The notes beneath the pieces are model-generated. The model saw nothing but the letters and a program-made list of their open reading frames with translations. It did not search any database and was not told where the DNA came from. A stretch of 64,000 nt of DNA. Source: Acidobacteriota bacterium (GTDB lineage Bacteria > Acidobacteriota > UBA6911 > RPQK01 > JAJDTT01). The stretch is taken from the NCBI GenBank assembly GCA_965203535.1, contig OZ241897.1, positions 5,782,169-5,846,168 of the forward strand, read 5' to 3'. The position numbers were made by a program, and so were the translations under genes. Positions 36,422 to 62,670 of the stretch are shown here, piece after piece. The number at the start of each line of letters is the position of its first letter. Position 1 is the stretch's first letter.

Positions 36422-36988
36422 ATGGTAGTGCCTGACAATCCCCAGGCGGTGGCGCGGCTGATCCGCGAGTCCAGATCCGGAGACGGGAACGCCCTCTCTC
36501 AACTCTTCCCCGTCGTTTATCAGGAACTGAGAAGGCTGGCCGGCAACTACATGCGCCGGGAGGCCCGCCAGACCTTACCCGCCACAGCCCTGGTCCACGA
36601 AGCGTACCTTCGACTCCTGGGCGAAAAGCAGGTGCATTGGAAGGACAGGGCTCATCTGCTGGGTATCGCGGCCCGTTCCATGCGGCAGATCCTGGTGGAG
36701 CGGGCGCGAGCGAGAATGGCCCGGAAGCGGGGCGGCGGGCAACACGCGGTGACCCTCATCGACGAGACCCTGGGCCAGAACGCGCGATCCATCGATTTCA
36801 TGGCTCTGGACCAGGCACTGCGGGCTCTCGCCGAGTTGGATCCGAAACAGGCCCGACTGGTCGAGCTCAGGTTCTTCGGTGGCCTGACGCTGGCGGAAAC
36901 CAGCGAGGTCATGGGCATCTCTCCTGCCACCACCAAACGCTGGTGGGCGCTCTCCCGAGCTTGGTTGCGACGCGAGTTGAACGGGTGA
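36422..36988 (+). CDS. ECF sigma factor (kinase-associated type)
   Basis: Start MVVPDNPQ preceded by AGGAG; the ORF-track start is 36350. Region 2 (ALSQLFPVVYQELRRLAGNYMRRE) and region 4 (LRFFGGLTLAETSEVMGISPATTKRWW) are present. The stop overlaps (GTGA) the downstream kinase start. Confidence 0.8.
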   Translation: MVVPDNPQAVARLIRESRSGDGNALSQLFPVVYQELRRLAGNYMRREARQTLPATALVHEAYLRLLGEKQVHWKDRAHLLGIAARSMRQILVERARARMARKRGGGQHAVTLIDETLGQNARSIDFMALDQALRALAELDPKQARLVELRFFGGLTLAETSEVMGISPATTKRWWALSRAWLRRELNG

Positions 36989-38517
36989 ACCCGAAAACGT
37001 TTCAGCGAGTCAAGGAAATCTTCGAGGCCGCCCTGGAACAGGATTCGGAATCGCGGGAGGACTTCGTCCGGCGGGAATGTTCCCCCGACACGGAGTTGAC
37101 CCGCGAGGTCCTGTCGCTGCTGTCCCACCACGATCCTGAAGCCACCTTCCTCGAAGGGAACCTGTTTCAACCCGCCGGCGTGGAAACGGCCGCCAGTCTC
37201 CTGGCGGAGGGGGACACCCTGGGCCCGTACCGGATTCTCGGCGAGGCGGGCCGGGGTGGCATGGCGGTCGTCTACCGCGCCGTCGACACGCGGCTGGACC
37301 GTACCGTGGCTCTCAAGGCAGTCTCTCCCCTCGTGGGCCGGGATGTCGAACAACGGCGGCGGCTCCGCCGCGAGGCCAAGGTCGCGGCTTCCCTGAATCA
37401 TCCCGCCATCGCCGCCGTCTATGCCCTGGAGGAACTCGACGGCGGGCTCTTTATCGCCGGCGAGTACATCGAGGGGAAGAATCTGCGATCGCGGATCGAG
37501 CAGGGGCCTCTTCCCCTCCCCGAACTTCTGCGGATGGCGACGCAGGTGTGCCAGGGCCTCGTGGCCGCCCACTCCAACGGCGTGGTCCATCGGGACCTCA
37601 AACCGGAGAACGTTCTGCTGGATGCGCAGGGAAATCTGAAGATCGTGGACTTCGGCCTGGCGCTTCCCACGCTGGAACCTTCCCGCAGCCAGCGCCTGAC
37701 GCAGGAGGGAACCGTTCTCGGAACCCCGGTCTACATGTCTCCCGAGCAGTTGGAGGGACAGGAAGCCGACTTCCGCTCCGACCTGTTCTCTTTCGGAATG
37801 TTGTTGTATGAACTGGCGACGGGCCGTCACCCGTTCGAAGGAAAGACGCCGTTGGCAACCGTGGCCAGGATCCTGGAGGGCAAACCGGGCCGCTCGGATG
37901 CCGTCGCTCCTCCGCCCGCATTGGAACGGATCCTCTTGCGGTGCCTCGAAAAGGAGCCGGCCGGCCGTTTCCCATCCACCGAGGAACTCCTGGAGCAATT
38001 GCTGCGCCTGGAGTCGGAGACCAGTCGCATCCCCCGGCAACCGTCCGCTTCCCGTGAGTCGCTTCACGGTGGCTGGTGGAACTTCCACCAGTCGGCGGTG
38101 ATCCTCTTGTACGCCGTCATGGTCTACGGCGTCTGGGAGTTCAAGCAGGCTGCATCACAGATCCCGGGAACCCGGTTTTTCCCGCTGATTCTCTTCTTTC
38201 TGGTGTTGGCATGCGCCTTGTGCAACGGCACGATTCGCACCCACCTCCTGTTCACGGCGCGTTTCAACCGTTCCGCCATCGAAGCGGAACTGAACCGGGT
38301 CGGCCGCTGGAAACAACGAGTCGACGCGCTCTTCTCCCTGTGCCTCCTGCTGGGAGCCAGTCTGATCGTGACCGGGGACCAACTCCTCGCCGGCTGCCTG
38401 GCTGCCGTTGCCGTCAGCTACACGGTCGTCTTCCTGGTGGTCGAGCCGGCCACCCAGCGGGCCGTCTTCAAACCAGCCGCGTCTCCGGTTCCACCGTCAT
38501 CCCACCGATCCTCCTGA
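36985..38517 (+). CDS. Ser/Thr protein kinase with C-terminal transmembrane segments
   Basis: GTG start at 36985. Hanks motifs: GEAGRGGMAVVYRA (G-loop), VALK, HRDLKPENVLL, IVDFGLA, GTPVYMSPE. Four C-terminal hydrophobic helices. Confidence 0.8.
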   Translation: MNPKTFQRVKEIFEAALEQDSESREDFVRRECSPDTELTREVLSLLSHHDPEATFLEGNLFQPAGVETAASLLAEGDTLGPYRILGEAGRGGMAVVYRAVDTRLDRTVALKAVSPLVGRDVEQRRRLRREAKVAASLNHPAIAAVYALEELDGGLFIAGEYIEGKNLRSRIEQGPLPLPELLRMATQVCQGLVAAHSNGVVHRDLKPENVLLDAQGNLKIVDFGLALPTLEPSRSQRLTQEGTVLGTPVYMSPEQLEGQEADFRSDLFSFGMLLYELATGRHPFEGKTPLATVARILEGKPGRSDAVAPPPALERILLRCLEKEPAGRFPSTEELLEQLLRLESETSRIPRQPSASRESLHGGWWNFHQSAVILLYAVMVYGVWEFKQAASQIPGTRFFPLILFFLVLACALCNGTIRTHLLFTARFNRSAIEAELNRVGRWKQRVDALFSLCLLLGASLIVTGDQLLAGCLAAVAVSYTVVFLVVEPATQRAVFKPAASPVPPSSHRSS

Positions 38518-39821: not shown

Positions 39822-40694
39822 ATGAAGACATCTGCATCGGCCAAAGTGCGGTTGGCGTTTGGAACCGCGGTCCTGGCCACGGTATGTCCCGTGGGCTCCG
39901 GCTCACTGCTTCAGGGCGCCGAGCTGAAACCCGAGACCTTGCTGGCCTGGGACAAGTACGTTCGGATCACCGAGGCAAGAATCCGCGACGAGCTGGCATC
40001 GGAGAAGGGATTCTTCGGACACGAATTCGGTCGAAAGAACGAAGCGCGGGCGGCTTGGCAACAGGTTCGTTCGGGCCGGGTCATGGTCGCCCGGATGGAA
40101 ACGGAGGATTCCCGGGGCCGAACCATCAAGGTCCGCGGTGGAATGATCCACCATTGGCGGGGGGCCATTCTGATTCCCTCCGTCCGGCTGGAACAGGTCA
40201 TCCATCGCCTGCGCTATCCGGACCCCAACGTGCCTCCTCAGAAGGACGTGCTGGAGACGAGAATCTTGGAACGGGACGAGGACTCCCTGCGCATCTACCT
40301 GAAGTTGGTCCGCAAGAAAATCGTCACCGTCGCCTACAACACCGAACACCTGGTCCGTTACCGCTGGCACGATCCGTTCCGGGCCTCGAGCCGCAGCATC
40401 GCCACCCGGATCGCCGAGCTGGAGAAACTCCATACTCCACAAGAGCGGGAAAAGGCGCCCGGACACGACCGGGGATTCCTGTGGCGGCTCAATTCCTATT
40501 GGAGATACCAGCAGGTCGAGGGCGGCGTGGTGGTGGAATGCGAATCCTTGTCCCTGAGCCGCGGCTACCCCGTCATCTTCAAACCCATCGTGGCTCCCAT
40601 CGTGAGGTCCGTCGCCAGGAAATCCATGAAGCGGACGCTGGCCTCGCTCCGAAACCGACTTCTCGCATCCCACACGACACGAGTCAAGCTCTAG
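39822..40694 (+). CDS. Secreted hypothetical protein, paralog of 35221..36159; its 3' end is duplicated at 49307-49390
   Basis: Signal peptide MKTSASAKVRLAFGTAVLATVCP. Shares AELKPETLLAWDKYVR, ...TVAYNTEHLV... and HDRGFLWRLNSYWRYQQVEGGVVVECESLSLSR with the paralog. Confidence 0.6.
   Translation: MKTSASAKVRLAFGTAVLATVCPVGSGSLLQGAELKPETLLAWDKYVRITEARIRDELASEKGFFGHEFGRKNEARAAWQQVRSGRVMVARMETEDSRGRTIKVRGGMIHHWRGAILIPSVRLEQVIHRLRYPDPNVPPQKDVLETRILERDEDSLRIYLKLVRKKIVTVAYNTEHLVRYRWHDPFRASSRSIATRIAELEKLHTPQEREKAPGHDRGFLWRLNSYWRYQQVEGGVVVECESLSLSRGYPVIFKPIVAPIVRSVARKSMKRTLASLRNRLLASHTTRVKL
40567..40650. repeat. Left copy of ~85-bp direct repeat bounding the genomic island (inside the 3' end of the gene 39822..40694)
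   Basis: ccccgtcatcttcaaacccatcgtggctcccatcgtgaggtccgtcgccaggaaatccatgaagcggacgctggcctc is near-identical (1-2 mismatches) to 49307-49390. Confidence 0.75.
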
Positions 40695-41116
40695 TCTCAC
40701 TCAGAATAGATATCCGCTCAATGCCTCGACTTGGCATCCGTCGCTATCCGGTGGCCAAATGGTGGTCCTAATACGTCAAGTTGTCTGGATGATTCGCGCT
40801 TGATCGGCTGAGTCTAGGCTCTCAAAGTTAAGTTCGTGTTTCTACATCGAAAACGAGTCCACGATCGCAGTCAGAAAGCGAGATACCATATAGAACAGTT
40901 CGGAATATGTCCTGATCCCCCGAGGACGCTAATAGAGGCTCCCGAGCCGAAAACGATCCCGCTCGATCAGAGTACGGATTTTGCCGGATCGGAAAAGAAG
41001 TAGTTTGCCCACCGACCAAGGTGGCCACCGTGACCGTCCGCGTCCTGCCCGATACCACCGGTGTTCTCGTCAAGCTGCCGTGTGAAGCGAGGCGGTTTGT
41101 CGGCAAAACATAGCTC

Positions 41117-44100
41117 TCATGTCATGGTGTCAGCATCAACTGGCAATTCGGCTTCAAGATGGATTCGAAGGTCCGCAGCGATGGCTTTCGGTATCGGTGC
41201 CCACGCTGGCTCCTGCTCACTAACGGTGTCACTCTTGTTTACTTCACCCAACTCAGCGGTCCGGATTCTGCGGCCATCCACCTCGTATTTGCCGCCCATC
41301 ACAACATCAAAGAGGTGGGCACGACCATGTACGACGCGGAAACGATGCTCGTCGTAGGTGCCTGCGATGTAGGGGACAGCGACATCCAGGGGACAATTTT
41401 GCTTACCGTGGCTCCAGAGACGTTCGGTTTTGCTACCGATCCGATCGACACGACCCGTCCGCTGCTCAAGCGTCGCCGGGTTCCACGGGAGGTCGTGGTG
41501 GATGACATGGCGGCACTCCCGGTGAAGGTCAATGCCTTCTTGGCCGACCGTGGTGACGACTAGAACCTCTGGAAACAGCGGCGAGTTGAAGCCCATAAAT
41601 AGCCGGTCACGCTCCGAGTTGGCAACCGATCCCGTCACGCGGGCGACGACATCGCGGTTTCTACTCGCATCTTCGTAGACAGAGATTTGCTCCTCAAGGC
41701 CGACTGCCCTCCGGAGTGTCTCCAGGTAAGCGTCGAACCGCTCTTGGGCGGACTCCCCCGCCGCAGACGGTGTCTGGTAGCGCTTGTGGATCAGTGAGGT
41801 CCAGTCATCATCGGCGGTATCGTCGTCGATGCTGGGCCGTTCGTTCGGATCGTCCAAAATGAAGCGGGCGAGGAAGCCGGGTGAACGGACAATGCGACGA
41901 AACATGCGCGTGGCCAACGTGCGGAGTCGGCCGGGCAGTCGCGCCAGCGCAGCCGAGTGACAGCACGTGAGCAGACTCGGCACTTCGATGCCTGGCTCGG
42001 CCAAGTAGGGAGAAAGCGTCGCTTGACCAGCGCGACCTTCGAGCACGGCCTTCCACGCGTCGATGTCTTCGGGCCGAGCGTAATGGCCGGCGGTGTAGAT
42101 GTCCTGATGGTCGGAAAGTAACTTGGATTTTAATTTCGGAAGGATACCTTCGACAACCTCACGGCGGCGAATAGGCCAGTCGGGGGCCAACACAAGGTTG
42201 AGCGACGCCGAAACCGTTTCCGCAAGCCGGAGCGGTCCAACTACGTCATTGATTTGTTGTTGTCCCCGGGAAAACTCCTTCCATCGGTCCACCAGAACCT
42301 GCTCGGCCGCGGCGAGTACACGTCGGCGGCTAAACTGGCTACGGTTGCGCGGCGGACCGCTGAGTGCAAGGCGTACCGCGACATCTGCGATTCCTCGCCC
42401 ACGAAGAGCAAGTCCCTGTGGAACACGTAGTTTCGGTCCTGCGAGGGGGTGGTCCTGGAAAAGCAGAAAGACCGACTGACGGTAGTTGTAAAGCCTCTTC
42501 TGGAAGTTCTTTAGGCGCTGTTCCAGCTTGTCCTCGGTGCACTCAAACGCTGCAGTCAACACCTTCGTATTGTATGTGTCGACCCGTCTCTTTACGGCGT
42601 TTCGGACCGCCTTAACGGTCTCAATATTGAAACAGAAGACCAGGGTCTTGTCGCCCTTACGCCACGCGCGGAAGGCACGCTCTGCAGTAACCGCAACCTT
42701 TGGGTGTTCGTGACCGCCTCCCCTAATCGCCCGCTCGACTAGGCCGAGATAACGCCTCGCCTCCTCGTTGCTCCCAGGCAGCATCCGCCTCAACTCACCT
42801 TTTCGGAAGAACGCGTATGAACCCCCGAGATCAGCTCCGAGGCTCGTCGAGCCACGCCCTCCCTTTTCTTCCTGCACGGCTCTCATCATCAGATAGTGCA
42901 CCAGTTCGGCGTCGCCGCTCACGTCTAGACCGGGTCGCCAACGAAGAACGCTTTCGCGTGTGGGGCGTTCGCTCGATTCTGGATCGGCCTCGCGGCCCAC
43001 CCACCACGCGCGATGTGAGACGTCGCGTAGGTGCCGCAGCAGGAACGGATTGAGGCTCATACTGAGTTGTTTTTGGGTGTCGCGCACGCGCACCAACGCT
43101 TTTACCGCTCGCCGCAGTCGTGGCGGCAGGTGATCAGACCAACCACGCTCGCCATTCTCATCCCAAGCCTGTTCCAGCTCGTTCATGTCACGTTCTTCAA
43201 CCTCGGCCCAAACGCTTCGGAGCGATTCTCCCGCCGCTTTGGCCGCTTGAAGCTGTACATCGAGAGTGCGGATGCGTTCATTTAGGAAGACCATGCGTTC
43301 TTCCGACAAGCCGATGCAGCACCGGAGATCAAGCACCCGGACGAGCTCATGCGGCCTGAGCTGGAACGGGGTCGCAGACAGTCCGAGCAAGCGGTCTATC
43401 CGCAGTCCCAGCGTGTGAAGGAACCTCCACCAGCTCGTTGGGTGGTTCTTCCAGTTGTGAATTTCGTCCACGATAACGAGAGGTACACTGTGGGGCACAG
43501 TCTGACCGAGCGCAGTGCGACAGATTTCTCGCAGATCCACCCAGTAAGATGATCGTTTCGAATGGCCGCTTCGGACTCTGTTCCACGAGTCCTTCATACG
43601 ATCACAAAGTCTGCGGTCGGCAAACTCGAGTCGACTCCACGCGGAACGTATATGGTGGTTGTCGAAGCCCACCTCGTCGGCGCTCCGCGCTTCCTGCCAC
43701 GCTACGGAAGATCGTCGCAGGTCCAGTTTCTCTCGCGTCGGACAGAATGACTGTGATTGGCAGTCGGACAACATCTCAAGGCGCTTTTGCATCGAAAGAT
43801 CGAATCCGTCCATGCGTAGCAGCGAGTGGATGACCGCCATACGCGCAGTATCGAGTCGATGTAGACGCCCGGAGAACGCGGACATACGCGCGATCACCAG
43901 TGTAGGCTTTCGTTTCCTCAGCTTGCGAACCAGATCGTGTGGTGTCTCTGCGGTCTCGACCTCGAAGCCATTGTCCGGCGGTGCCACGTGGAGGAGGAAC
44001 TGTTCAGCCTCTCGCTTCCACTTTGCAAAAAGGGCGTGGGCGTGAGGAGTGACGACGAGCACCGGACCAGTAGAAAGGCCCGCCACCGAACGCTGGCGAA

Positions 44101-44332
44101 GCACCGACCAAGCTACGCCCAACGCCACGAAGGTCTTCCCGAGCCCGACCTCGTCGGCAAGAAGGACGATTTCCCGGCGGCCCTCATCATCATCGTTGTA
44201 CAGGCGCCGAAGGATGGCATCGATGGTGCGCTCCTGCCGCATCGCCGCCTTCTCCACTGCAACAGGATCGCCATCCCCGAGCGCATGGCGGAGTGAGCAC
44301 CGCAAATCGAGTCCGTCGGGCCGTACGATCAT
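41117..44332 (-). CDS. SF2 (SNF2/DEAD-like) helicase, 1071 aa
   Basis: Motif I LLADEVGLGKTFVALGV. Motif II VIVDEIHNWKN. Motif III LLGLSATPFQ. Motif V LVVTTVGQEGIDL. Motif VI LEQRTGRVDRIGS. The start overlaps the upstream PLD gene's stop by 4 bp. Confidence 0.8.
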   Translation of the reverse strand: MIVRPDGLDLRCSLRHALGDGDPVAVEKAAMRQERTIDAILRRLYNDDDEGRREIVLLADEVGLGKTFVALGVAWSVLRQRSVAGLSTGPVLVVTPHAHALFAKWKREAEQFLLHVAPPDNGFEVETAETPHDLVRKLRKRKPTLVIARMSAFSGRLHRLDTARMAVIHSLLRMDGFDLSMQKRLEMLSDCQSQSFCPTREKLDLRRSSVAWQEARSADEVGFDNHHIRSAWSRLEFADRRLCDRMKDSWNRVRSGHSKRSSYWVDLREICRTALGQTVPHSVPLVIVDEIHNWKNHPTSWWRFLHTLGLRIDRLLGLSATPFQLRPHELVRVLDLRCCIGLSEERMVFLNERIRTLDVQLQAAKAAGESLRSVWAEVEERDMNELEQAWDENGERGWSDHLPPRLRRAVKALVRVRDTQKQLSMSLNPFLLRHLRDVSHRAWWVGREADPESSERPTRESVLRWRPGLDVSGDAELVHYLMMRAVQEEKGGRGSTSLGADLGGSYAFFRKGELRRMLPGSNEEARRYLGLVERAIRGGGHEHPKVAVTAERAFRAWRKGDKTLVFCFNIETVKAVRNAVKRRVDTYNTKVLTAAFECTEDKLEQRLKNFQKRLYNYRQSVFLLFQDHPLAGPKLRVPQGLALRGRGIADVAVRLALSGPPRNRSQFSRRRVLAAAEQVLVDRWKEFSRGQQQINDVVGPLRLAETVSASLNLVLAPDWPIRRREVVEGILPKLKSKLLSDHQDIYTAGHYARPEDIDAWKAVLEGRAGQATLSPYLAEPGIEVPSLLTCCHSAALARLPGRLRTLATRMFRRIVRSPGFLARFILDDPNERPSIDDDTADDDWTSLIHKRYQTPSAAGESAQERFDAYLETLRRAVGLEEQISVYEDASRNRDVVARVTGSVANSERDRLFMGFNSPLFPEVLVVTTVGQEGIDLHRECRHVIHHDLPWNPATLEQRTGRVDRIGSKTERLWSHGKQNCPLDVAVPYIAGTYDEHRFRVVHGRAHLFDVVMGGKYEVDGRRIRTAELGEVNKSDTVSEQEPAWAPIPKAIAADLRIHLEAELPVDADTMT

Positions 44333-46467
44333 ATTCGCCCCCGCTGCAGACAGAGATAGATTCGGACAACTTCGGCGTTGGTCTCCGTTGGAAGCTCAGC
44401 AACCACCTTATCGAGCAACGAGGTAACCTCGGCTAACGCTTCGGCCCGAAGTATGTCGGCGACGCCGTCAGCCAGCACCGGAAGCGGTGCGGTCTTGAGC
44501 AGGTACCGCAGTTCCGCGAGTTGAAACGCGGTGGCCACGGCGGTCTTGCGGGGCCGGTCGGGTTGGGGATTACGATAGGAGGCCAACGACTGGCGAGCCA
44601 GCTCGACGGGGGACCGATGTCCCAGCAACGCGGCGCGAAGTCCCGTCTCGTTCATGCCGGCTTCCGACAGGCGGTTACGAACGCCCGGGAGTGCGTGCAC
44701 GAAATCACGCACGAAATAGCTCAAGATGTCCTGCGTAGCCGACGGCAGATCATCGTTCCCCGGAAGAGGATCGATGCTATGGCCGAAGCCCCCGTCCTCC
44801 ATCTCACCGGCGGGCCGTAGCCCGAGAAACCAGGCGACGAGCGATTGCTCGTCCTCTCGGTACCGGGACTCGACGACCGGAAACAAGTGTTTGTCTTCAA
44901 ACACCACGGGTAAAACGGCAACGTTGCCGTTCCACGAGACCTCGGCTTCCAGATCCGGTAGCGCTGGCCACGTCTGACCGTCACCCGACGAACCCTGGTC
45001 CAACCACGACGCACTCAGCGAAGTGGACTCCGAAAATACACCCTCCGAGCTGGCGGGAGAGGACACGGTCCACGCGTCGAACCACTGTTTCTGATTGTAC
45101 AGCCGCGACCGAATGTCCCTCATACGAATGACGACTTTCTCCGGCCAAGTTGTGGCATCGCCCTTGATGAACAGCTCCTCCCTCTTCGCACGCAATGATA
45201 GGATGAAGGTGGGCCAGCCATCCTCGTCGTCGCCAATGTACTCCCGGGGCTCGACGACGAAGTCCTCGGGTCGCCGCGTCACCTTGCGCCACGCAGTTGC
45301 GAAGGACACGATGTCGGAAAGGCCCGAAGACTGGTCGTTCGGGAGTTCCCATAACAGACCCGCCTCCGCGTTCGAGTTGTTGACGAGGCCGAGGCCCTTC
45401 CGTGTGAAGTTAAACGACCCGATCGCGAGCCGCGTCGTCTTGTCGCCTACCGCGAGTAAGACCTTAGCGTGCAACGAGCGATTCCCGGTCGGGCTCGCTC
45501 CCCGGCCATCGGCGACCTTGTCGAACTCGCCCTTATCGTCTTCGTCTTCCGTCGCGCAACCGAAACCCGGGTCCGCAGCAGCCACCTCCACCTTCAACCC
45601 TGCGGCAAGCAGATCCCGCACGAGGCTCGCGGGGATGACTGGCCGAGCTTTCCCCTGCTCGTCCAAGTCCGCGCTCCCGATGAGCTGCACCGTCCCCAAG
45701 CGTCCGCCGCAGAACCGCCCAAGCGCGGTGACGACGTCGGAGAGATCGTTTCCCGATGGCCAGAACGGACTCGCGATGGTTAGCCGACCCACTCGCTCCC
45801 GAGATCCTGCGAGTCGCGGAAAGCCGGTCGCGGAGGGAAGACCCACAAATCGGAGCCGTTTGTCCCGACGCGATGCTGAGCGACTCATGAACACCGCCTT
45901 CATGTCTCGGAGCTGCCGGGTCACTTGGTTTGTCGATGAACCGATCAACCGTTCGAGCCAGTCCACCGCCTCCCGAACAGCCGTGGCTGCCTCCGACAAA
46001 CTACCGCGTGCGTCGTCGAGGGCCGCCGCTACCTCGATATTGCTCCGGTAGCCCGAGTTCGTGAGGTTCGCAGAACCGACAACTAGGCGGACAACCTGGT
46101 TTGCGGCCTCCGGTGAGTCTGGCGCAACGAAACGAAGGAGCGCCACCTTCGCGTGCAGTTTGGGGTAACGCCCTTCGGGCAGTGGAATGAGGTCGATGCG
46201 AGGAGACTTGCGCCGCCCGGGCTGGTAGCGGCCTGGATGGAAAAACACCGACACCTCTGTGTCCGCGAGCGCGTTTTCCAATTCCACGCGAAAGTCCCTC
46301 CCGCGGGCTGGCGGCAATCGCAGGCCAAGCGCGACCGGTAGGATGTCCTCCTCAAGGAAGTCCGCCTGCAGATCGTAGGTCGTAGCGATCACGCTAGCGA
46401 GCCGGTGACCCCGGGGCGCCTCCCAGAGTTCGATGAGTCGACGTGCCATCAAGAAACGGACTTCCAT
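44329..46467 (-). CDS. Phospholipase-D-family protein with two HKD motifs plus ~350-aa C-terminal region of unknown function
   Basis: HKD motif 1 is LHAKVALLRF...GSANLTNSGY. HKD motif 2 is LHAKVLLAVGDKTTRLAIGSFNFTRKGLG. The true start is possibly the internal MARRLIELW at 46449, which would give a 1-nt overlap with the upstream stop. Confidence 0.75.
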   Translation of the reverse strand: MEVRFLMARRLIELWEAPRGHRLASVIATTYDLQADFLEEDILPVALGLRLPPARGRDFRVELENALADTEVSVFFHPGRYQPGRRKSPRIDLIPLPEGRYPKLHAKVALLRFVAPDSPEAANQVVRLVVGSANLTNSGYRSNIEVAAALDDARGSLSEAATAVREAVDWLERLIGSSTNQVTRQLRDMKAVFMSRSASRRDKRLRFVGLPSATGFPRLAGSRERVGRLTIASPFWPSGNDLSDVVTALGRFCGGRLGTVQLIGSADLDEQGKARPVIPASLVRDLLAAGLKVEVAAADPGFGCATEDEDDKGEFDKVADGRGASPTGNRSLHAKVLLAVGDKTTRLAIGSFNFTRKGLGLVNNSNAEAGLLWELPNDQSSGLSDIVSFATAWRKVTRRPEDFVVEPREYIGDDEDGWPTFILSLRAKREELFIKGDATTWPEKVVIRMRDIRSRLYNQKQWFDAWTVSSPASSEGVFSESTSLSASWLDQGSSGDGQTWPALPDLEAEVSWNGNVAVLPVVFEDKHLFPVVESRYREDEQSLVAWFLGLRPAGEMEDGGFGHSIDPLPGNDDLPSATQDILSYFVRDFVHALPGVRNRLSEAGMNETGLRAALLGHRSPVELARQSLASYRNPQPDRPRKTAVATAFQLAELRYLLKTAPLPVLADGVADILRAEALAEVTSLLDKVVAELPTETNAEVVRIYLCLQRGRI

Positions 46468-47786
46468 GCGCCGGCCTCGCGCAACATGGCCGTGAACTGC
46501 TCGAGGCGATATGGGTGTGTGAACTCAGTGCGACCAGGGTTCTCGGGCCTCTCGTCGAGCGCGTACCGGGGAGCGACCACGATATCGACATCGTTATCGC
46601 ACAACTTAACCCAGGGGAGCTTGGGCTGCCGAGAGGCATCGAGCTTGCCGTCCTGCACCCGTTCGTGGTGGCGAATCAGATCGTGAATGACCTCCGCCTC
46701 GTTCTCCGCACGGACAGCTGGTTCGACGGCGCGGTAGAAACTATGCACGGCCGCGTGCACCGAAGGAGGCAGCCGGGCCTTGTGCTGTTCCAGAGCTCCC
46801 GAGAGCGAGTCGCCCAAGCGAGAGAGTGGCACGTCTCCTCCGCTGAGTTGGATGCTCATCAAGGGTGCGGGGCGATGCCGGTCCAACGACGCGCGCACTT
46901 GATTAAAGCGATGGAGCAACTCACGGTGGAGATCCTCGAAGGACGACGCGACAGCGAGGACTGCCGCTAGCTGGTCTGTTCGCGGTTCCCCCTGCTGGCT
47001 GAAGTGCTTGCTAAGCAACCGAAACGAGTTACCATTGGACGTGCTGGCACCCGTCGCCCGCATCGCGGACGCCATCCGCCTGTGAGCGAGCGGCTCTAGG
47101 AGAGCATCGGCGAGCAGCCGACGCTCGTGCATCGAAGCCGCTCCGAGATGCGCCACGTTGCCCCAGTCGGCCAGCGTGGTTTCTGTGAACACGACGTCCT
47201 CTCCACTGATGACCCTACGCAATCGGGCATGGTCAGGCGTCCCCCGGCGTCGAAGAAAGGCATCGGCCAGTTTCTTGCCCCGAGCGGTGAGTGCGCCGGC
47301 GCTGTCCTCGACCAACCGTGCCGCGACCAGACTAACCCAGTAGGTCCCTACGCCGCCCACGCCGGCTTGGTTTCGCAACATTGGGAACGCCGGTGAACGA
47401 ACCCCCTCGGTAACCGCGCGGCGTACATAGGACACACCTCGAAGCTGGTGCCATGAGCGGTCGTCCGCAGCGGCGCCTTGGGCAGTTGCGTGGATACCAG
47501 TGGCCAATGCCACGAGACGCTCCCACGCCAGGATTTTCTGTCGTCGCGCCCGACCGGCTCTACCGCCGGAAGGTGCGTCGGGAAGTTTGTCCAGCAACCG
47601 AAGTCCGGCACAGACCCAGGAGAGATAGCGGACGCGGGACGTGATCGTGGTAACTCCGGGGAGGAGCGTGGTCGCGATTGAAATAAAGGACCGTAGCGCT
47701 CCCAAAGGATCGATGCTACCCGAAACGGCAGCGCGGGGATCCCAGACGGACACGAAGGGTAAGGGCAGAAAGTCAGAACGCTTCAC
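46449..47786 (-). CDS. Hypothetical protein (445 aa) of unrecognised fold, embedded in the nuclease/helicase operon
   Basis: Continuous ORF with GC3 similar to the neighbouring genes. Tightly coupled at both ends, overlapping the Mrr-cat stop and the PLD start. No motif recognised. Confidence 0.5.
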   Translation of the reverse strand: MKRSDFLPLPFVSVWDPRAAVSGSIDPLGALRSFISIATTLLPGVTTITSRVRYLSWVCAGLRLLDKLPDAPSGGRAGRARRQKILAWERLVALATGIHATAQGAAADDRSWHQLRGVSYVRRAVTEGVRSPAFPMLRNQAGVGGVGTYWVSLVAARLVEDSAGALTARGKKLADAFLRRRGTPDHARLRRVISGEDVVFTETTLADWGNVAHLGAASMHERRLLADALLEPLAHRRMASAMRATGASTSNGNSFRLLSKHFSQQGEPRTDQLAAVLAVASSFEDLHRELLHRFNQVRASLDRHRPAPLMSIQLSGGDVPLSRLGDSLSGALEQHKARLPPSVHAAVHSFYRAVEPAVRAENEAEVIHDLIRHHERVQDGKLDASRQPKLPWVKLCDNDVDIVVAPRYALDERPENPGRTEFTHPYRLEQFTAMLREAGAWKSVS

Positions 47787-48415
47787 TAGGTTCCTTGATT
47801 CTCAGTTGCTCTTTTCTTCGGGTGCGAATGCATCTGCTTTCGTCTCCAAAAATCGCGATCGGACACTTTTGGACGCTGATGCGGGGCTGGATGAGGAAAA
47901 CGAACAGCCTTTTGCCATCGGTGAAGGTAATAGGGGGACGACCTCAGCGAACGCAGCTTCCTGAGTCGTTTTGCAGACTGGGAGGCTGTAACGAAAATTT
48001 TGCGGACGGCGTAGAATCGGTAGAGCGTGCCGTGGAGCACGTCGCAGATTTTACGTTGGATCGTAGTGGGATAGCGTTTCACCTGCGAGATATCACGGAC
48101 CGACGTGATGCCGAGATCGTTGTCGCCGGCCACATCAACGCCGTCGTCGTGCGACTGCGCAGTGACCACCACGTTCTGGCAACCCATCTTTTCCAACTGA
48201 CGTCCGATTACGTGCTCAAAGGCGAAGGGGTCCATGTCATCGGGGAGTCCGCGCATGCCATTACGAACCGTGTTCTCCTTATGGCCAATGAGGGCCCGGG
48301 TTTTGCAGTGGTCGTTTCCGCTGACGGAGTCTTCCTCGCTAGCCCAAGAGGCAGACCAGCCCATCCAGCGTCGCGGACAATTCCCTTCCTTTCCGCTTGA
48401 CCAAGCCCAACTCAA
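47786..48415 (-). CDS. Mrr-cat (restriction endonuclease) domain protein, C-terminal part of an apparently frameshifted Mrr-like gene
   Basis: FEHVIGRQLEKMGCQNVVVTAQSHDDGVDVAGDNDLGITSVRDISQVKRYPTTIQRKICDVLHGTLYRFYAVRKIFVTASQSAK matches the PD-(D/E)xK Mrr_cat architecture: D...D...QVKRY...T-T-S. The N-terminal 25 aa of the ORF call are low-complexity and probably out of frame. Confidence 0.6.
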   Translation of the reverse strand: MSWAWSSGKEGNCPRRWMGWSASWASEEDSVSGNDHCKTRALIGHKENTVRNGMRGLPDDMDPFAFEHVIGRQLEKMGCQNVVVTAQSHDDGVDVAGDNDLGITSVRDISQVKRYPTTIQRKICDVLHGTLYRFYAVRKIFVTASQSAKRLRKLRSLRSSPYYLHRWQKAVRFPHPAPHQRPKVSDRDFWRRKQMHSHPKKRATENQGT

Positions 48416-48545
48416 TTTGGTTTCTAAGCCGGTTGCACATTGTATCTATGATGGTCGACTGTTTTCCGGCGGCCACGCGACCCGACAGGTAGTCGCTCCA
48501 CTCGTTGACAAATCGTACGATTCGAGCCCGCCCTTTTTTCACCAA
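48339..48545 (-). pseudogene. Possible N-terminal (winged-helix, Mrr_N-like) segment of the Mrr-like gene in a different frame (frameshift or assembly error)
   Basis: The 68-aa ORF MVKKGRARIVRFVNEWSDYLSGRVAAGKQSTIIDTMCNRLRNQIELGLVKRKGRELSATLDGL overlaps the start of 47786..48415 (48339-48415) in another frame. Joined together they give a ~250-aa Mrr-like protein. Confidence 0.3.
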
Positions 48546-49306
48546 GTTAGAGAGTAGCTTGACGAGCCCTACATCTTTGTTGATGTCGCTCTCAACTTCA
48601 CCGTCGGGCTAATCCGGGAAGTCCTGGCCGCTCTTCACCCGATGGAGGACACCACTGCCATACTTGCGACTGTGCCTTTAGTTCTGCCCGAACAGCCAGT
48701 GGCCATAGGTGTATCGAGGGTTCACACTTTTCGACCGGTCCCAGACAGCCTCGGCATGCTCGTAGTCGCCACCCTAGACCCGCCCCAGGATACGAGTGGA
48801 AGGAATCGGTGTAATCGACCGGATTCCCGGCAATGCCGCGTGACCCACTGTTCGTAGCTCGAAAACCGGTCACTTGCCATAGCCGGCCCCAGAACCACAC
48901 GCGCAGCAGATGTTGGAGCTCCAAGTAGACTGGGAAGAGTGGGATGCGGACCATCCGGGAGCCTTCGCCTCTCGATGCATCAGCCTCGTATTGATGACTA
49001 ATGGCCAGAGCGGGCATGTTTGGGAACGCGTACAGCCCTCAAATCCCGAACCCGCCGGGTCGGATGCTAATCAAAACGCTCTTCTATCCCTCCCGCTTGA
49101 TATCGACCGCAGTGATCGCGGTGAGCGAGGCGGTCGGAATGGACCCGTCAGTGTGTACCAATCTGATTCTTAAGATGGACTTTTCCAGATCATGGTAGCG
49201 AATCGGAACGTGTGCCTTCACGCACTCGACCGCTACCTCTCGACACGCCATACTCTCTTTATTCTCTTTCGATCGAGTAATCAATCGTGGTCCAACCCCG
49301 CTTCGA

Positions 49307-49390
49307 CCCCGTCATCTTCAAGCCCATCGTGGCTCCCATCGTGAGGTCCGTCGCCAGGAAATCCATGAAGCGGACGCTGGCCTCCCTCCG
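49307..49390. repeat. Right copy of the ~85-bp direct repeat (orphan 3' fragment of the paralog gene)
   Basis: Encodes ...PVIFKPIVAPIVRSVARKSMKRTLASL, then diverges from the intact gene (HRLLLTDVAQESLQPVPGS*). Confidence 0.75.
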
Positions 49391-49783
49391 GCATCGCCTT
49401 CTCCTGACCGACGTGGCGCAGGAAAGCCTGCAACCGGTTCCGGGATCCTGATCCCGGGGAGTCCGAGTTCCGGAAACGGCACCGGCACGTCGCGTGCCGA
49501 ACGGTGGAGACTTGGGCCTCAGGCTGCTACGCTGCCAGAGGCATGGGATCCGGAGAGAGCCAGGAGCGGAAACGGCGCGGCGAATACCGGTACAGCGGTT
49601 GGCTCCTGTTGCTGGTGGGCCTCCTGCTGTTGTCCTCCTTCTACTACACTTTCGATCTCTGGCCGGTGAAGCTGCTGCTGACCCTGTTCCTGCTGTCGGC
49701 GGCGAGCTTCCTGTTGTGGAGGGCCGGCCGCCTTTCAAAACGCTGACCTTCCGGGCTCAGGAATCACCGGCTTTCGAAAAACC

Positions 49784-57818: not shown

Positions 57819-59048
57819 TCAAAACAGGTCGCTCAAATTGACCCTGTCTATTTTCGGTCGCGGCTTGGGAAGCGCGCCCGCGAACCTCTCGATGGTGAGC
57901 TGCCTTCGTCGCTCCAACCCCCGAAAACGATCGAGAAACAGGGTGCTATCGCCATCGGTCGTGCTGAAATAGATCCATTTGGTCGCGCGGGTAATCCCAA
58001 CGAACAACCATCTTTCCAGTCGTTCATCCATTATCCGAAAGAGACGCCGATTCAGACACGGCATCAAAACAGTGTCGAAGGTCAAGCCCTTGGCGCTCGG
58101 ATACGCCATGAGCTTGGGCCGCGAGGTGCCGAAATCAATGGTTGGCCTCGTGTTTTTCCTTTTTCTCCCAGGTTGTCGAGGAACCTCAACTTCCAGGCCA
58201 GCCTCTCCCAAACCCTTGGCATAGCCGAAGACATGTCTTCGAGTCGGGAACAGGATCGCTATGCGGTCGTTTCTGTCGACGCGGGTGCGGACCACTTCGA
58301 TCAGACGTTCCCGCTCGTCTTTGAATGCCCGGGCGAGGTAGAGAAGCGGGGTTTGGCGTTCGCCTTTGTCGACGGGCGGATTCTGTTCAATGAACGCTTC
58401 GCGTTCCGACGGGTCACGGATAAACGCCGCGGCGACCCGTACGATGTAGGGCGAACAACGATAGGCATCGAGAAGCGTGAGGTTACGCTTGCGCAATCCC
58501 AACGCCGTAAGAACGCCCTTCTCATCGGCGCCTTCATAGAGTTGCTGCTTGTGGTCCATGTAGACCGTGACATGCCCGGCTATACCCTTGAGGGTTTCGT
58601 ACGCGCGAGCGTCCAGATCCTGTCCTTCATCGACCAGCACAAAGTCGTAGAGAGGTATGAGTCTCTTCTGCGAGCGAACTCTTTTCCACACTGCACGGCG
58701 AATCGCCTTGAAGTCCGGACTCTTCCCGTCCCATGGCACGCGTCCACCGATGTGCGTCCTATAGAACCTCCGACACCAATCATCGAAGGTCGTCACGCAC
58801 TCCTCGGGAAGACGGAGATCTTGAAGCGCCGTGCGGATGTAGGCCTTCAGCACGTTGGTGAACACAAGGATCCGGTATCTGCTATCCGGAATTCTGTGCT
58901 CATCCACAAGGTGCCGCGCGCGGTGCAACAAAACGAGCGTCTTTCCGGATCCTGGAGAACCGATAACCAGGCGATGTCGCCTGGAACTCAACTGGACCGC
59001 GCGACTTTGCGCGACAGTCAGCTCATTTCGAGGAACGAGCCAACTCAT
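57819..59048 (-). CDS. UvrD/PcrA-like superfamily-1 helicase, short form (409 aa)
   Basis: Walker A LVIGSPGSGKTLVLLHRA. Walker B FVLVDEGQDL. C-terminal UvrD_C-like ...GLTFDTVLMP...FVGITRATKWIYF. The start overlaps the stop of the Hsp70-like gene by 4 bp. Confidence 0.7.
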   Translation of the reverse strand: MSWLVPRNELTVAQSRAVQLSSRRHRLVIGSPGSGKTLVLLHRARHLVDEHRIPDSRYRILVFTNVLKAYIRTALQDLRLPEECVTTFDDWCRRFYRTHIGGRVPWDGKSPDFKAIRRAVWKRVRSQKRLIPLYDFVLVDEGQDLDARAYETLKGIAGHVTVYMDHKQQLYEGADEKGVLTALGLRKRNLTLLDAYRCSPYIVRVAAAFIRDPSEREAFIEQNPPVDKGERQTPLLYLARAFKDERERLIEVVRTRVDRNDRIAILFPTRRHVFGYAKGLGEAGLEVEVPRQPGRKRKNTRPTIDFGTSRPKLMAYPSAKGLTFDTVLMPCLNRRLFRIMDERLERWLFVGITRATKWIYFSTTDGDSTLFLDRFRGLERRRQLTIERFAGALPKPRPKIDRVNLSDLF

Positions 59049-61480
59049 TGCCCCCGCCTTTCGATCTCATTTCGACGTTCGGGCAGAACTCCAGTCGTCC
59101 CCTCCCGTGATTTTTCCCGGCGCTGCCGTTCGTCCTCGACCTTGCGCGACAGCTTGCTGTTGCCGGCAAGATTCGCGCCTTTCAGATACCATACAAGTTC
59201 CCAATCGCTTAGATTCTTCAGTGGACGGAACTCGGCAAAGGCTTGGTCCAAGAGGGCGTTTCTCTGCTTCTCGTGTCGTTCAAGTTTTTCGGCCAGCGTC
59301 GCCTTGAGCACAAGAGTGGGAGGATCAGACTCCACTGCGAGTGCCTCGTCAATGGTTAGAATCGCCTCCTCAAGTTTGCCCTGACGCATCTGTGAAAGCG
59401 CCAAGTTAAACAGGGGACCTTTCCAATGCGGGGAGACTCGGGCGGCCTCGCGATAGAGCTTCTCTTGACGTGCGAAATCCGCCATCTCGCCGCAGATGAT
59501 GCCCATCCGATTCAGTATCTCGGCATTCGGATGCGGGCGATTCAAGGCGCTCAAGAGATGCAGAGCCTTCTCACGCCTGCCCAAATCCGCTTCAAGTTCG
59601 GCAATCTTTTTCACCGTCGCGCGTTGGTCCGTCGTCGACATGTGCTCCGTGCGCATCCGTTCTTCCAGTTCCAGAATCTCATTCCGCTTTGCGTTCGGAT
59701 TCACCACGTTGGTCAACGGGTTTTCGACCTCTGCCTGAAATTCCTCTCGATCTGGTTGGTGTGCCAAGCCGAGGCGAAGATGCAGCACTTGGTTGCTGTC
59801 CATCCGGCAAAGCAACCGTAGCGGATCCCCCCGGCTGACAATCGGTTGAATCGTCCAGAGTGTGCGCATGACATCGTTGCCCCGCGAGTCTCGGAGTTCG
59901 ACGCGGAGTTCAACGTCGTCGGTCAGGCCGGATCTGGGAACCTTCAAGCTATTGTTCTCCACCCAACCTTCGTCGGTCGGATAGGGCAATTTTGCGCCGC
60001 TTTCAACCAACCGCACCGGCCCATCCGAAGTCTGGATGCTGATGCCATCGCTCGTGACGGGTTGCACGATGCCTCGCCCGTACACAGCCAGAGACAACGC
60101 CTGCCAAGCTGCGCCTTGAGCGATAGCAGTCTGCGTGCGCTCCGGATCGTCGAAGCGCAAGAACCGCGCCTCACTAAAGAAGCCGGCGACGGCATCCGCG
60201 ATCTGCGGAACCAGACTGCTTCCACCGACCGCCAGGCAAAGATCGACGTCCTTGCGGTCCAGTCCGGCCCGGTCCAAAGCGTCTTGTAGCGGCGCAAAAA
60301 CAGAGCAGGTTTCGTGGTAATCCGCCTCCCGGGCGTAGAGCAGGTCTCGATCCAGAAAGGGTTTCAACACCGCGTCGAACTGGCAGGCGCTCAGCGTGGG
60401 GGATTGCAGCCGAAACTCCGTTCCATCTGACAAGAGGCAGGGATAGACTCCAGGATTCCTCTTGACCAGGGCGGCGCGTTCTTCGTCACCGTAGCGATCG
60501 AACTTCTTCAGCCGAGCGATCTCTTGGCATAGTCCGATCTTCAAAGATTCGGCCACGCCAAGGAGCGCTGGAATCACAAACTGGGACTTCTCGCCGTAGT
60601 CCAAATCGCGGAAGTTCGGCCTGTTCTGTTCCATCAATTGCGGGAGCAAGACCTCGACAACGATGGCTCGGTCGATGTCGCTGCCGCCAAGGCGATGATA
60701 GCGAGACACCGTGAGCGGTGCGATTTTGACCGGTTGCCCTGCTTTAGGCGGCAGAAGCTGGAACAGGGCAACGTCGCAGGTGCCGCCGCCAAAGTCGAAC
60801 ACCACGAGCCGCTGCGGTGCCGAAACCTCCGCAAATACTTGTTTGCCTTGAGCGATCTGAAAATCGAGAAACGCCGCGATCGGTTCGTCCAGCAGACCTC
60901 CCTCTACCAAATCGATGCCGCCGAGCGCCGCGGCCTCGACCGTATCCTGCCTCTGCGCGGCTTGGAAGGAGGCCGGCGTTGTGACCACGGTGTTCGTTAC
61001 CGGCGTCGGGTCGTCGGTTAGTGCCGCATCCATGAGAAATCGGAGTACGTGTCCTCCAATGGCCTTGGCAGATTGAAAACCGTCCTTGGCCTTGTGGTAA
61101 GTTCGGCGGACACCGATGTCATTCTTGCAGTCCCAGAAGATGTTTCTGTTCTGTTCCAGACCGTATTCGCTCAGTCGGGCGCGCAGCATCTTCGCTCCCT
61201 CACCCACAAGCAGTTGTCCATACGGACCATCGGCGAACGCAACCACTGACGGTACCAGGGTGTGAATATATTCACCTTGCCGAGTGTGTTGCTCGACTTC
61301 GAGGCAACGAACTTCAGGCAGGTTCGTGTCTCCGGGATGGATAACGATCTCGGCAATAGCAGAATTCGTAGTGCCCAAATCTATGCCGACGACGCGCAAT
61401 GGCTCGTTCGGCGTGCGGACCTGGACATTCTGCGGCGTGATCAGTGCGAGTGATGGCATATCACTTGTCCTGTCATTCAT
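59045..61480 (-). CDS. Hsp70-family (DnaK-like) ATPase with C-terminal TPR-like helical domain
   Basis: Start MNDRTSDMPSLALITPQ. The ORF-track N-terminal extension to 62257 overlaps the dehydratase gene and is spurious. VVGIDLGTTNSAIA (phosphate-1), VVFDFGGGTCDVAL (connect-1) and Hsp70 NBD/SBD-like regions. The C-terminal ~250 aa are helical repeats (TPR-like). Confidence 0.75.
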   Translation of the reverse strand: MNDRTSDMPSLALITPQNVQVRTPNEPLRVVGIDLGTTNSAIAEIVIHPGDTNLPEVRCLEVEQHTRQGEYIHTLVPSVVAFADGPYGQLLVGEGAKMLRARLSEYGLEQNRNIFWDCKNDIGVRRTYHKAKDGFQSAKAIGGHVLRFLMDAALTDDPTPVTNTVVTTPASFQAAQRQDTVEAAALGGIDLVEGGLLDEPIAAFLDFQIAQGKQVFAEVSAPQRLVVFDFGGGTCDVALFQLLPPKAGQPVKIAPLTVSRYHRLGGSDIDRAIVVEVLLPQLMEQNRPNFRDLDYGEKSQFVIPALLGVAESLKIGLCQEIARLKKFDRYGDEERAALVKRNPGVYPCLLSDGTEFRLQSPTLSACQFDAVLKPFLDRDLLYAREADYHETCSVFAPLQDALDRAGLDRKDVDLCLAVGGSSLVPQIADAVAGFFSEARFLRFDDPERTQTAIAQGAAWQALSLAVYGRGIVQPVTSDGISIQTSDGPVRLVESGAKLPYPTDEGWVENNSLKVPRSGLTDDVELRVELRDSRGNDVMRTLWTIQPIVSRGDPLRLLCRMDSNQVLHLRLGLAHQPDREEFQAEVENPLTNVVNPNAKRNEILELEERMRTEHMSTTDQRATVKKIAELEADLGRREKALHLLSALNRPHPNAEILNRMGIICGEMADFARQEKLYREAARVSPHWKGPLFNLALSQMRQGKLEEAILTIDEALAVESDPPTLVLKATLAEKLERHEKQRNALLDQAFAEFRPLKNLSDWELVWYLKGANLAGNSKLSRKVEDERQRREKSREGTTGVLPERRNEIERRGQ

Positions 61481-61488
61481 CCCGCAGA

Positions 61489-62670
61489 TTATTCCCTCAA
61501 CACATCGGACCGCCCCTCCCAGCCTTCGGCCAGGAGATCGATCACGCGGTCTCCCTTGAGGGGATGTTCGCGGGCTACCGAGACGTCGAGTTCCACCCCG
61601 AGGCCCGGTTTCTCCGGCAATTCGATGTAGCCGTTCCGGATGGGGGCCGAGCCGGTGACCAGATCCCGGGTCCAGGAGGGATAGGCGAACTCGGCGAACG
61701 CCTCCTGGATCAGGAACGCCGGCGCCGTGAAGCTGACCTGGATCGAGGCCGCCATGCAGATGGGGCCCAGGGACATGTGGGGAGCGAAGAAGACGCCCAG
61801 GGCGTCGGCCAGGGACGCCATCTTCTTTACCTCCAGCATCCCGGAGGAATAGCCCACGTCCGGCTGGAAGACGCCCGCCGCCCGGTCGGGCAGGTACTGG
61901 CTGGCCTGCACCAGGTCGCTGATGCCGGCCACGTCGGTCCCGATGGGAATATTGACCCGGGACGCCACTTCCTTGAGGGGGGCGGGACCCAGGTAGCCGA
62001 GAGTCGGCGCCTCGTACCAGAGCAGGTCGTACGGTTCCATGGCCTTGCCGAACTGAATCGCGGCTTCGGGATGAAACCGGGCGTGCGCCTCCACGATCAG
62101 GCCTGTGTCGGGTCCGGTGGCGTCGCGCACGGCGGCGACGATGTCCACGGCCAGGCGGAACTCCGACGGTTCGAGGCGGCGGTAGGCGGCCCCGAAGGGG
62201 TCGAACTTGAGAGCCGTGTAACCCTGGTCCACCAGCTTTCCGGCCTTCGCCGCCCATTGGCTGGGTTCACGGGCGTCGAAGTCGTTGTACCAACCGTTGG
62301 CGTAGACGCGGATCCGGTCGCGGACCTTGCCGCCCAGCAACTTGTAGACCGGGACTCCGTAGTGCTTCCCCAGAATGTCCCAGCAGGCCTGCTCCACGGC
62401 GGAGAGAACACTCCTCTCCACCATGCCCAGACCTCGATCGATCCCCAGCATCTGGCGGGTGTCCAGGACCATCTGTTCGATGTCGTGGGGGTCCCGCCCC
62501 AGGAAGAGATGCTCGCCGTTCTGGCGCAGATAGGCTTGGGCCGCCAGGGACCAGTGGTACCCGATCCCTTCGCCGACGCCGACAACACCGGTGTCCGTCT
62601 CCACCTGCACGAAGAACCAGGGGTTCCAAGGATTCTCCACGATGTAGGAATCGACTTTGATGATCTGCAT
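61489..62670 (-). CDS. Enolase-superfamily (mandelate racemase/muconate-lactonizing enzyme family) sugar-acid dehydratase
   Basis: 393 aa. N-terminal capping domain (MQIIKVDSYIVENPW..WFFVQVETDTGVVGVGE). Barrel metal ligands (…DPFG…, …EAP…, …DVAGISD…). Confidence 0.75.
   Translation of the reverse strand: MQIIKVDSYIVENPWNPWFFVQVETDTGVVGVGEGIGYHWSLAAQAYLRQNGEHLFLGRDPHDIEQMVLDTRQMLGIDRGLGMVERSVLSAVEQACWDILGKHYGVPVYKLLGGKVRDRIRVYANGWYNDFDAREPSQWAAKAGKLVDQGYTALKFDPFGAAYRRLEPSEFRLAVDIVAAVRDATGPDTGLIVEAHARFHPEAAIQFGKAMEPYDLLWYEAPTLGYLGPAPLKEVASRVNIPIGTDVAGISDLVQASQYLPDRAAGVFQPDVGYSSGMLEVKKMASLADALGVFFAPHMSLGPICMAASIQVSFTAPAFLIQEAFAEFAYPSWTRDLVTGSAPIRNGYIELPEKPGLGVELDVSVAREHPLKGDRVIDLLAEGWEGRSDVLRE

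Follow-up and report, generated by a model that had tools for sequence, protein, structure and literature searches.

An intact three-gene operon, here designated A-B-C, lies on the minus strand of a 64,000-nucleotide (nt) stretch of an Acidobacteriota bacterium genome (contig OZ241897.1; hereafter the window), and with a probability of roughly 0.7 it represents a divergent clade of the Azaca/PDC-M27 anti-phage superfamily, carried on an 8.6-kb island beside a dead gene of the PDC-S02 type. Its genes encode, in order, a protein with no recognised domain (A), a protein of the phospholipase D (PLD) family (B) and a superfamily 2 (SF2) helicase (C). Azaca, made up of ZacA, ZacB and ZacC, reportedly goes back to Millman et al. 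2022, and PDC-M27 (genes A, B and C) is listed in PADLOC-DB v2 as a phage-defence candidate only. Very probably the operon serves in defence, a phenotype ascribed to it through its homology to ZacABC. An earlier note on this DNA had called it an undescribed defence system; the defence role is judged probably right, given the spread of the triad, its neighbours in other genomes and its homology to Azaca, whereas the call of an undescribed system fails, as gene order, domains and the homology of all three proteins tie the cassette to Azaca and PDC-M27.

The operon of A, B and C is genuine, its genes being intact and coupled in translation (Table 1). The B and C reading frames overlap by 4 nt (ATGA), and those of A and B by 19 nt, or by 1 nt (TGATG) if translation of B starts at M7. 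Together the three genes amount to 2228 codons without interruption, and their products align end to end with homologues in tblastn comparisons. Four co-directional coupled genes had been proposed for this locus; three of them stand, as minus-strand open reading frames (ORFs) of the expected sizes with overlapping ends, while the fourth is a pseudogene. No methyltransferase is encoded in the cassette or among its neighbours in the window, as the earlier note had also observed.

The SF2 motifs previously attributed to the 1071-amino-acid (aa) helicase were located in the C sequence, namely motif I (GLGKT, residues 63-67), motif II (DEIH, 289-292), motif III (SAT, 319), motif V (930) and motif VI (QRTGRVDR, 957), and the protein matches the Pfam families Helicase_C (expectation value, E, 2.9e-17), SNF2-rel_dom (8.7e-9) and ResIII (3e-7). 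An insertion of ~550 aa separates its two RecA lobes, and its nearest sequences in the Protein Data Bank (PDB) are those of RapA and Rad54. C is predicted to be a SNF2-type SF2 ATPase resembling ZacC, PDC-M27C and DrmD. For B, the Pfam domain PLDc_2 was found twice, and the H-x-K...GSxN...E motifs are present in two copies (H105/K107/S132/N134/E145 and H333/K335/S351/N353/E368), both of them invariant in an alignment of 29 homologues; the Asp of HxK(x)4D is missing at its canonical spacing in each copy. The ORF, the motif reading, Pfam and Foldseek all bear out the description of a 712-aa protein with two HKD-type motifs and a large C-terminal half without a match, and B is predicted to be a ZacB-like PLD-family nuclease. 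The 445-aa product of gene A, in which no motif had been recognised, has no match in Pfam (E<=0.1) or NCBIfam, and PDB sequence searches returned nothing for either A or B.

Predicted structures extend this picture. The AlphaFold2 model of A (predicted local distance difference test, pLDDT, 88; predicted template modelling score 0.86) is all-alpha with a small C-terminal beta element, and the protein is presumed to be a ZacA/PDC-M27A-like adaptor or specificity subunit. A Foldseek comparison of this model with the PDB gave no match with E below 0.6, so that a DNA-binding or adaptor role for A can be put forward only weakly. The model of B (pLDDT 78) shows a single chain with a pair of HxK lobes (residues ~10-400) that leads into a beta-sandwich and then a helical bundle (~420-705). 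In Foldseek the PLD domain matches bilobed single-chain PLDs as well as the PLD nucleases BfiI, SauUSI and NgoAVII, and the C-terminal half has no significant match.

The A-B-C triad is conserved as a unit well beyond the window. Searching with A yielded 188 homologues, about 440 aa in length and all devoid of Pfam domains, and the A profile recovered 691 clusters (50% identity) at E<=1e-3 from the full library, 307 of them at E<=1e-10. With each GTDB species represented by a single genome, a scan yielded 35 loci from five phyla: Acidobacteriota (Vicinamibacterales, Terriglobia, Bryobacterales), Myxococcota (Haliangium, Bradymonadia), Pseudomonadota (Luteimonas arsenica, Ideonella, Afipia, Lysobacterales), Planctomycetota and Chloroflexota. 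When the four window proteins (A, B, C and the Mrr-type product) were compared with all related loci by tblastn, full-length A, B and C were found abutting in the window order in about 20 of the 35, at identities of A down to 31%; six further loci are truncated by contig ends yet consistent with the triad, and the remainder are deleted, interrupted or remnant copies. The triad also occurs in metagenome loci (L001-L003 and L040-L042), and no relative of A was found in viral contigs, which is neutral for the proposed assignment. Nucleotide similarity to more than 20 loci is restricted to positions 41113-47811, the nearest cassettes by DNA being those of Vicinamibacterales, and tblastx of the flanks found nothing in common with the related loci. 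As similarity stops at the cassette ends and the flanks are unshared, A-B-C appears to move as a unit between unrelated genomes. The earlier expectation that the genes would be conserved together elsewhere therefore holds for A, B and C, whose order is kept in about 20 genomes, without the Mrr-type gene.

The link to Azaca was traced with PADLOC v2.0.0 profiles. Azaca is a validated system of three genes encoding ZacA (with DUF6361), ZacB (PLD) and ZacC (SF2 helicase), and confers more than 1e6-fold protection against T4 (bioRxiv 10.1101/2025.07.10.664194). In the same study T4 DNA was cut only by ZacA, ZacB and ZacC together, both the active site of ZacB and the Walker A motif of ZacC were required, and BmAzaca preferred T4 DNA for cleavage, possibly through recognition of glucosyl-hydroxymethylcytosine; anti-phage activity and ATP-dependent DNA cleavage by the ABC complex are known only for BmAzaca and KpAzaca (10.1101/2025.07.10.664194). 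Window A matches the ZacA model (PDLC03828, 396 positions) at E 5e-4, a partial match in which residues 22-93 align to positions 28-98 of 396, and all 29 of the 29 A-family members match this model at the same N-terminal motif (best E 1.2e-9). B matches ZacB at 7e-23, with residues 11-396 aligned to positions 10-361 of the 586 in the model and positions 362-586 unmatched, and C matches ZacC at 7e-32 in three stretches.

For PDC-M27, the best PADLOC match of C is PDC-M27C (7e-37, partial), and B matches PDC-M27B at 2e-13; window A has no PADLOC match to PDC-M27A, which is matched by 8 of the 29 A-family members. Profile-profile alignments were made against bona fide PDC-M27 proteins encoded on Vibrio and Rhodoferax plasmids. 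With hhalign, the A family aligned to PDC-M27A over its full length (69% probability, E 4e-5, 413 columns), a wider A family did so at 97% probability (E 5e-11, 410 columns), and the B family aligned to PDC-M27B at 97.6% probability (E 3e-12) over residues 27-375 only. Profile comparison thus shows that A and B share ancestry with PDC-M27A and PDC-M27B. Distant homologues of A were further found in triads with a PLD protein and a SNF2 helicase in Clostridium sp. YIM B02569 (L045) and in a metagenome-assembled genome (L046), both matched weakly by the Azaca and PDC-M27 models. Taken with the 691 A clusters, these triads suggest a larger superfamily of which Azaca and PDC-M27 represent two tips already covered by models and the window clade another; further unmodelled clades exist in it.

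Several observations weigh against this assignment. Membership in Azaca proper does not hold, as the model matches are partial: the ZacA model covers only about 70 N-terminal residues of A, and the C-terminal 340 residues of B align to neither ZacB nor PDC-M27B. DUF6361 (PF19888) has no match in A at E<=0.1 and none in 29 close relatives at E<=10; among 37 distant relatives it was detected in one (E 0.0074) and in none of the other 36. It is likewise not among the precomputed Pfam annotations of 120 and 25 homologues, and a homologue search seeded with the most distant relatives of A returned no annotated DUF6361 protein. As for PDC-M27, tblastn of plasmids with B gave one weak match, and the search with C led to PDC-M27 cassettes on Vibrio nigripulchritudo pTUMSAT-V.nig2-1 and on a Rhodoferax antarcticus plasmid, which were used for calibration. 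Both score 5e-172 to 0 over the full length of the PDC-M27A/B/C models versus 2e-13 to 7e-37 for the window proteins, which are therefore not PDC-M27 members at the level of the models. The question of whether the cassette would match an already named system is thus answered in part: homology to Azaca and PDC-M27 is present, but their models fit only partly and the cassette is not a full member of either.

Other observations also count against the assignment. Decayed copies are frequent among the relatives (L004, L005, L006, L021, L033) and four loci keep N-terminal remnants of A only (L032, L035, L037, L038); the types of decay comprise internal deletions fusing B to C, an insertion of ~1.7 kb in B, frameshifts and reduction of A to an N-terminal remnant, and suggest that the cassette turns over rapidly. 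Directly upstream lies a pseudogene, and a promoter and terminator scan of that side recognised no promoter, which leaves expression of A-B-C uncertain. It is accordingly conceivable, if unlikely, that the operon is a silent relic whose intact coding sequences are no longer expressed or functional in this host. Set against this are the 2228 uninterrupted codons aligning end to end with homologues and the retained catalytic residues, and a sigma-70 scan carries no information in an organism of this type.

The genomic context bears on the island as well as on the nature of the system. A direct repeat of 106 nt (92% identical, with a perfect core of 62 nt present in two copies in the window versus 0 expected) encloses exactly C, B, A and the pseudogene, and therefore indicates an inserted 8.6-kb island. 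The right copy shows no similarity to the left flank beyond the repeat itself. The repeat looks like an att-type duplication around an island without an integrase of its own. An exact scan of metagenomes with a 50-nt att core found no empty integration site, and homologues of the 290-aa gene at the left copy (at most 53% identity, not syntenic) gave none either. The earlier note had placed the operon on a compositionally foreign island; the island is marked by the repeat, but its composition is unremarkable. Cassette GC content is 0.613 versus a window mean of 0.631, and since 24% of windows of the same size do not exceed the cassette value, GC was rejected as evidence of foreignness.

Table 1. 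Coordinates of the A-B-C cassette, the adjoining pseudogene and the flanking direct repeat in the window
Feature	Position	Strand	Remarks
Gene C (helicase)	41117..44332	minus	1071 aa, uninterrupted ORF
Gene B (PLD)	44329..46467	minus	712 aa, uninterrupted ORF
Gene A (no recognised domain)	46449..47786	minus	445 aa, GTG start, uninterrupted ORF
PDC-S02-type pseudogene (~390-aa protein, C-terminal Mrr_cat)	about 47790-48957	minus	PADLOC PDLC04796 pieces in three frames
106-nt direct repeat, left copy	40559..40664	plus	3' end of a 290-aa ORF, 39822..40694 (no family match)
106-nt direct repeat, right copy	49298..49403	plus	Orphan fragment, putative other end of the island

In other genomes the triad is accompanied by a type I restriction-modification system with an AAA_15 ATPase, by tyrosine and serine recombinases (integrases among them) and IS21, by DUF2779 with WYL, by McrBC with WYL and Mrr_N, and by Eco57I-like and DUF4011/MZB helicases. 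In the Rhodoferax PDC-M27 plasmid copy (L044, 1-2470), the DUF2779 and WYL pair precedes the triad at a distance of 35 nt from A; in a wastewater relative of the window clade (L001, 1340-3811), where it is likewise upstream, about 6 kb and five genes separate it from A. A WYL gene also precedes the Clostridium triad. The pair may be a recurrent regulator or partner of the triad.

A role outside defence, either in a chromosomal module for DNA repair or remodelling or through a PLD acting on phospholipids, is improbable, more so than a silent relic. It would agree with the resemblance of C to RapA and Rad54, with the phosphatidylserine synthase and the Streptomyces phospholipase D that are the top Foldseek matches of B, and with the ordinary genes around the cassette in the window (a Ser/Thr kinase, a GtrA-domain protein, a DUF3891 protein, an FAD oxidase and an SSF symporter). 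However, the bilobed fold alone accounts for the lipid-PLD matches and the homologous ZacB is a DNA nuclease, while the spread of the triad over five phyla is patchy and without shared flanks, att-like repeats flank the locus, pseudogenisation is frequent, and relatives repeatedly adjoin restriction-modification, McrBC, WYL and recombinase genes.

The gene upstream of A had been taken for an Mrr-cat nuclease and the fourth member of the operon, and this claim is not borne out. No ORF spans the gene from 48545: the frame beginning there ends near 48340, the Mrr_cat domain (Pfam 5.7e-12) sits in a different frame within a 209-aa ORF fragment with a TTG start (47786..48415), and the C-terminal continuation expected (PITFTDGKRLFVFL...) falls in a third frame. 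When the three frame translations were scanned with PADLOC, positions 4-54 of the 390 in the PDC-S02 model PDLC04796 mapped to 48957-48805, positions 55-206 to 48803-48348 across three in-frame stops, and positions 231-333 to 48271-47963, with the tail again in another frame. With no intact ORF, model pieces in three frames and three stops, the gene is a pseudogene, decayed from the PDC-S02 type; poor sequence quality would hardly explain its state, given that A, B and C can be aligned with homologues over their whole length. A four-gene system in which the Mrr-cat nuclease works with A, B and C might be imagined from the 1-nt stop/start overlap of the Mrr_cat ORF with A and from their shared island. 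Yet none of the 39 related loci compared by tblastn has a counterpart of the Mrr-type gene, DNA homology to relatives stops at 47811, at the start of A, and PDC-S02 is listed in PADLOC as a single-gene candidate. The four-gene system is therefore rejected as highly improbable, the Mrr-type gene being dead and not co-conserved; it is a pseudogene outside the conserved system.

Two further features of the window were recorded. At 57819-62257 on the minus strand, an ORF for a 409-aa UvrD-like helicase overlaps the stop codon of a gene for a 1070-aa Hsp70-like protein with TPR; in PADLOC the helicase matches C3a187 NERD+UvrD (2.7e-21) and GajB (1.5e-15), and the two genes occupy the part of the window with the lowest GC content (0.557-0.568). 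Together they may represent a second module of foreign or defence-like character. The Ser/Thr kinase at 36637-38517 on the plus strand (Pkinase 3.6e-47) matches the PADLOC PD-T4-6 models at 2e-83; these matches are probably generic Pkinase similarity, and the kinase was set aside as evidence of a defence island.

If the cassette is a divergent member of the Azaca/PDC-M27 superfamily, a mechanism can be outlined in which complex formation, DNA cleavage, the defence phenotype and the trigger are all carried over from ZacABC by homology. A, B and C would assemble into one complex. C would be a SNF2-like translocase on double-stranded DNA, whose ATPase (Walker A K66, DEIH 289-292) would license or drive the complex on invading double-stranded DNA. 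In B, the two HxK lobes (H105/K107 and H333/K335) would build a single composite PLD active site and cut DNA via a phospho-histidine intermediate. The all-alpha A, with winged-helix-like sub-domains, may be needed for assembly or target choice, and the clade-specific C-terminal half of B possibly joins A in assembly or target selection. As the system has no methyltransferase, self and non-self must be told apart by some property of the incoming DNA, for example base hypermodification, as has been suggested for Azaca and T4. The cassette would then act like a split, ATP-dependent type IV restriction enzyme, a functional analogue of SauUSI. A more specific proposal, so far tentative and rather doubtful, is that the window clade constitutes a functionally distinct defence type in a much larger, for the most part uncatalogued superfamily of A, PLD and SNF2 helicase proteins, with the unmatched C-terminal half of B and the novel-fold A serving as a specificity module for a DNA feature other than that seen by Azaca in T4.

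To our knowledge, Azaca is among the least understood of the validated defence systems; we know of no function for ZacA, and the trigger has only been guessed at (T4 hypermodification). The three-gene architecture reaches beyond Azaca and PDC-M27 into many soil and water phyla, and the PADLOC v2.0.0 Azaca and PDC-M27 models and the Pfam family DUF6361 fit such clades only in part, which suggests that the sets of hidden Markov models (HMMs) for the superfamily need widening. The confident model of A, which is without a solved structural relative, and the clade-variable C-terminal half of B offer handles on the question of which part determines target specificity. The earlier call of a novel four-gene system becomes a three-gene, Azaca-like system next to a pseudogene.

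Among other named systems, an assignment to DISARM or another module of a helicase and a PLD protein (a DrmD and DrmC remnant, a Dpd or BREX accessory, or a PLD-helicase fusion) is about as improbable as the four-gene system: C matches DrmD (1e-23 in PADLOC; 96 bits versus a cut-off of 610 in NCBIfam), DpdE (76 bits versus 500), BrxH and PLD_Helicase, and B matches DrmC (E 4e-7; 32 bits versus 133), while phospholipD_antiphage reaches 59 bits versus 1100, but all scores fall far beneath the curated cut-offs, in essence only generic Helicase_C and HxK regions are matched, no DrmA, DrmB, DrmE, methylase, BREX or Dpd genes occur among the window neighbours, higher scores are reached with ZacB and PDC-M27C/ZacC, and for A the sole link is to ZacA/PDC-M27A. 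The earlier view that the cassette is none of DISARM, Gabija and BREX is upheld by the DISARM, Dpd and BREX scores and the missing partner genes.

Compared with known systems, the cassette shares with DISARM a SNF2-like helicase and a PLD protein in a defence context and weak HMM matches to DrmD and DrmC; in contrast, the scores lie far under the cut-offs, DrmA, DrmB and a methylase are lacking in the window, and DrmC is a single-HKD protein of ~240 aa. The likeness to ATP-dependent type IV restriction enzymes of the SauUSI type is an analogy only: a PLD nuclease is combined with an SF2 motor, a cognate methylase is lacking, the target is modified DNA, and the B PLD domain matches SauUSI structurally (Foldseek E 1e-3). 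The PDB search detected no sequence-level homology to SauUSI, which is a single polypeptide with a recognition domain, whereas the window system would use three subunits. PDC-M27 has the same triad of A, PLD protein and helicase, and in some loci of both the neighbours are DUF2779 and WYL; M27C is about 870 aa long versus 1071 aa for window C, and the C-terminal halves of B do not align. Azaca differs in that window A has no DUF6361 match and a ZacA match of ~70 residues, that window B is about 125 residues longer with an unmatched C-terminal half, and that the cassette scores as a distant relative rather than a member; the window clade is hosted by Acidobacteriota, Myxococcota, Planctomycetota and Proteobacteria of soil and water. 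Like Azaca, the cassette has three co-directional genes, first that of an alpha-helical protein, then a PLD nuclease gene and last a large SF2 helicase gene; also shared are the PLD HxK motifs of B and the Walker A and B motifs of C, alignment of the ZacB model across the whole double-PLD region of B, a RecA2 lobe near the C-terminus of the helicase, and the absence of a methyltransferase.

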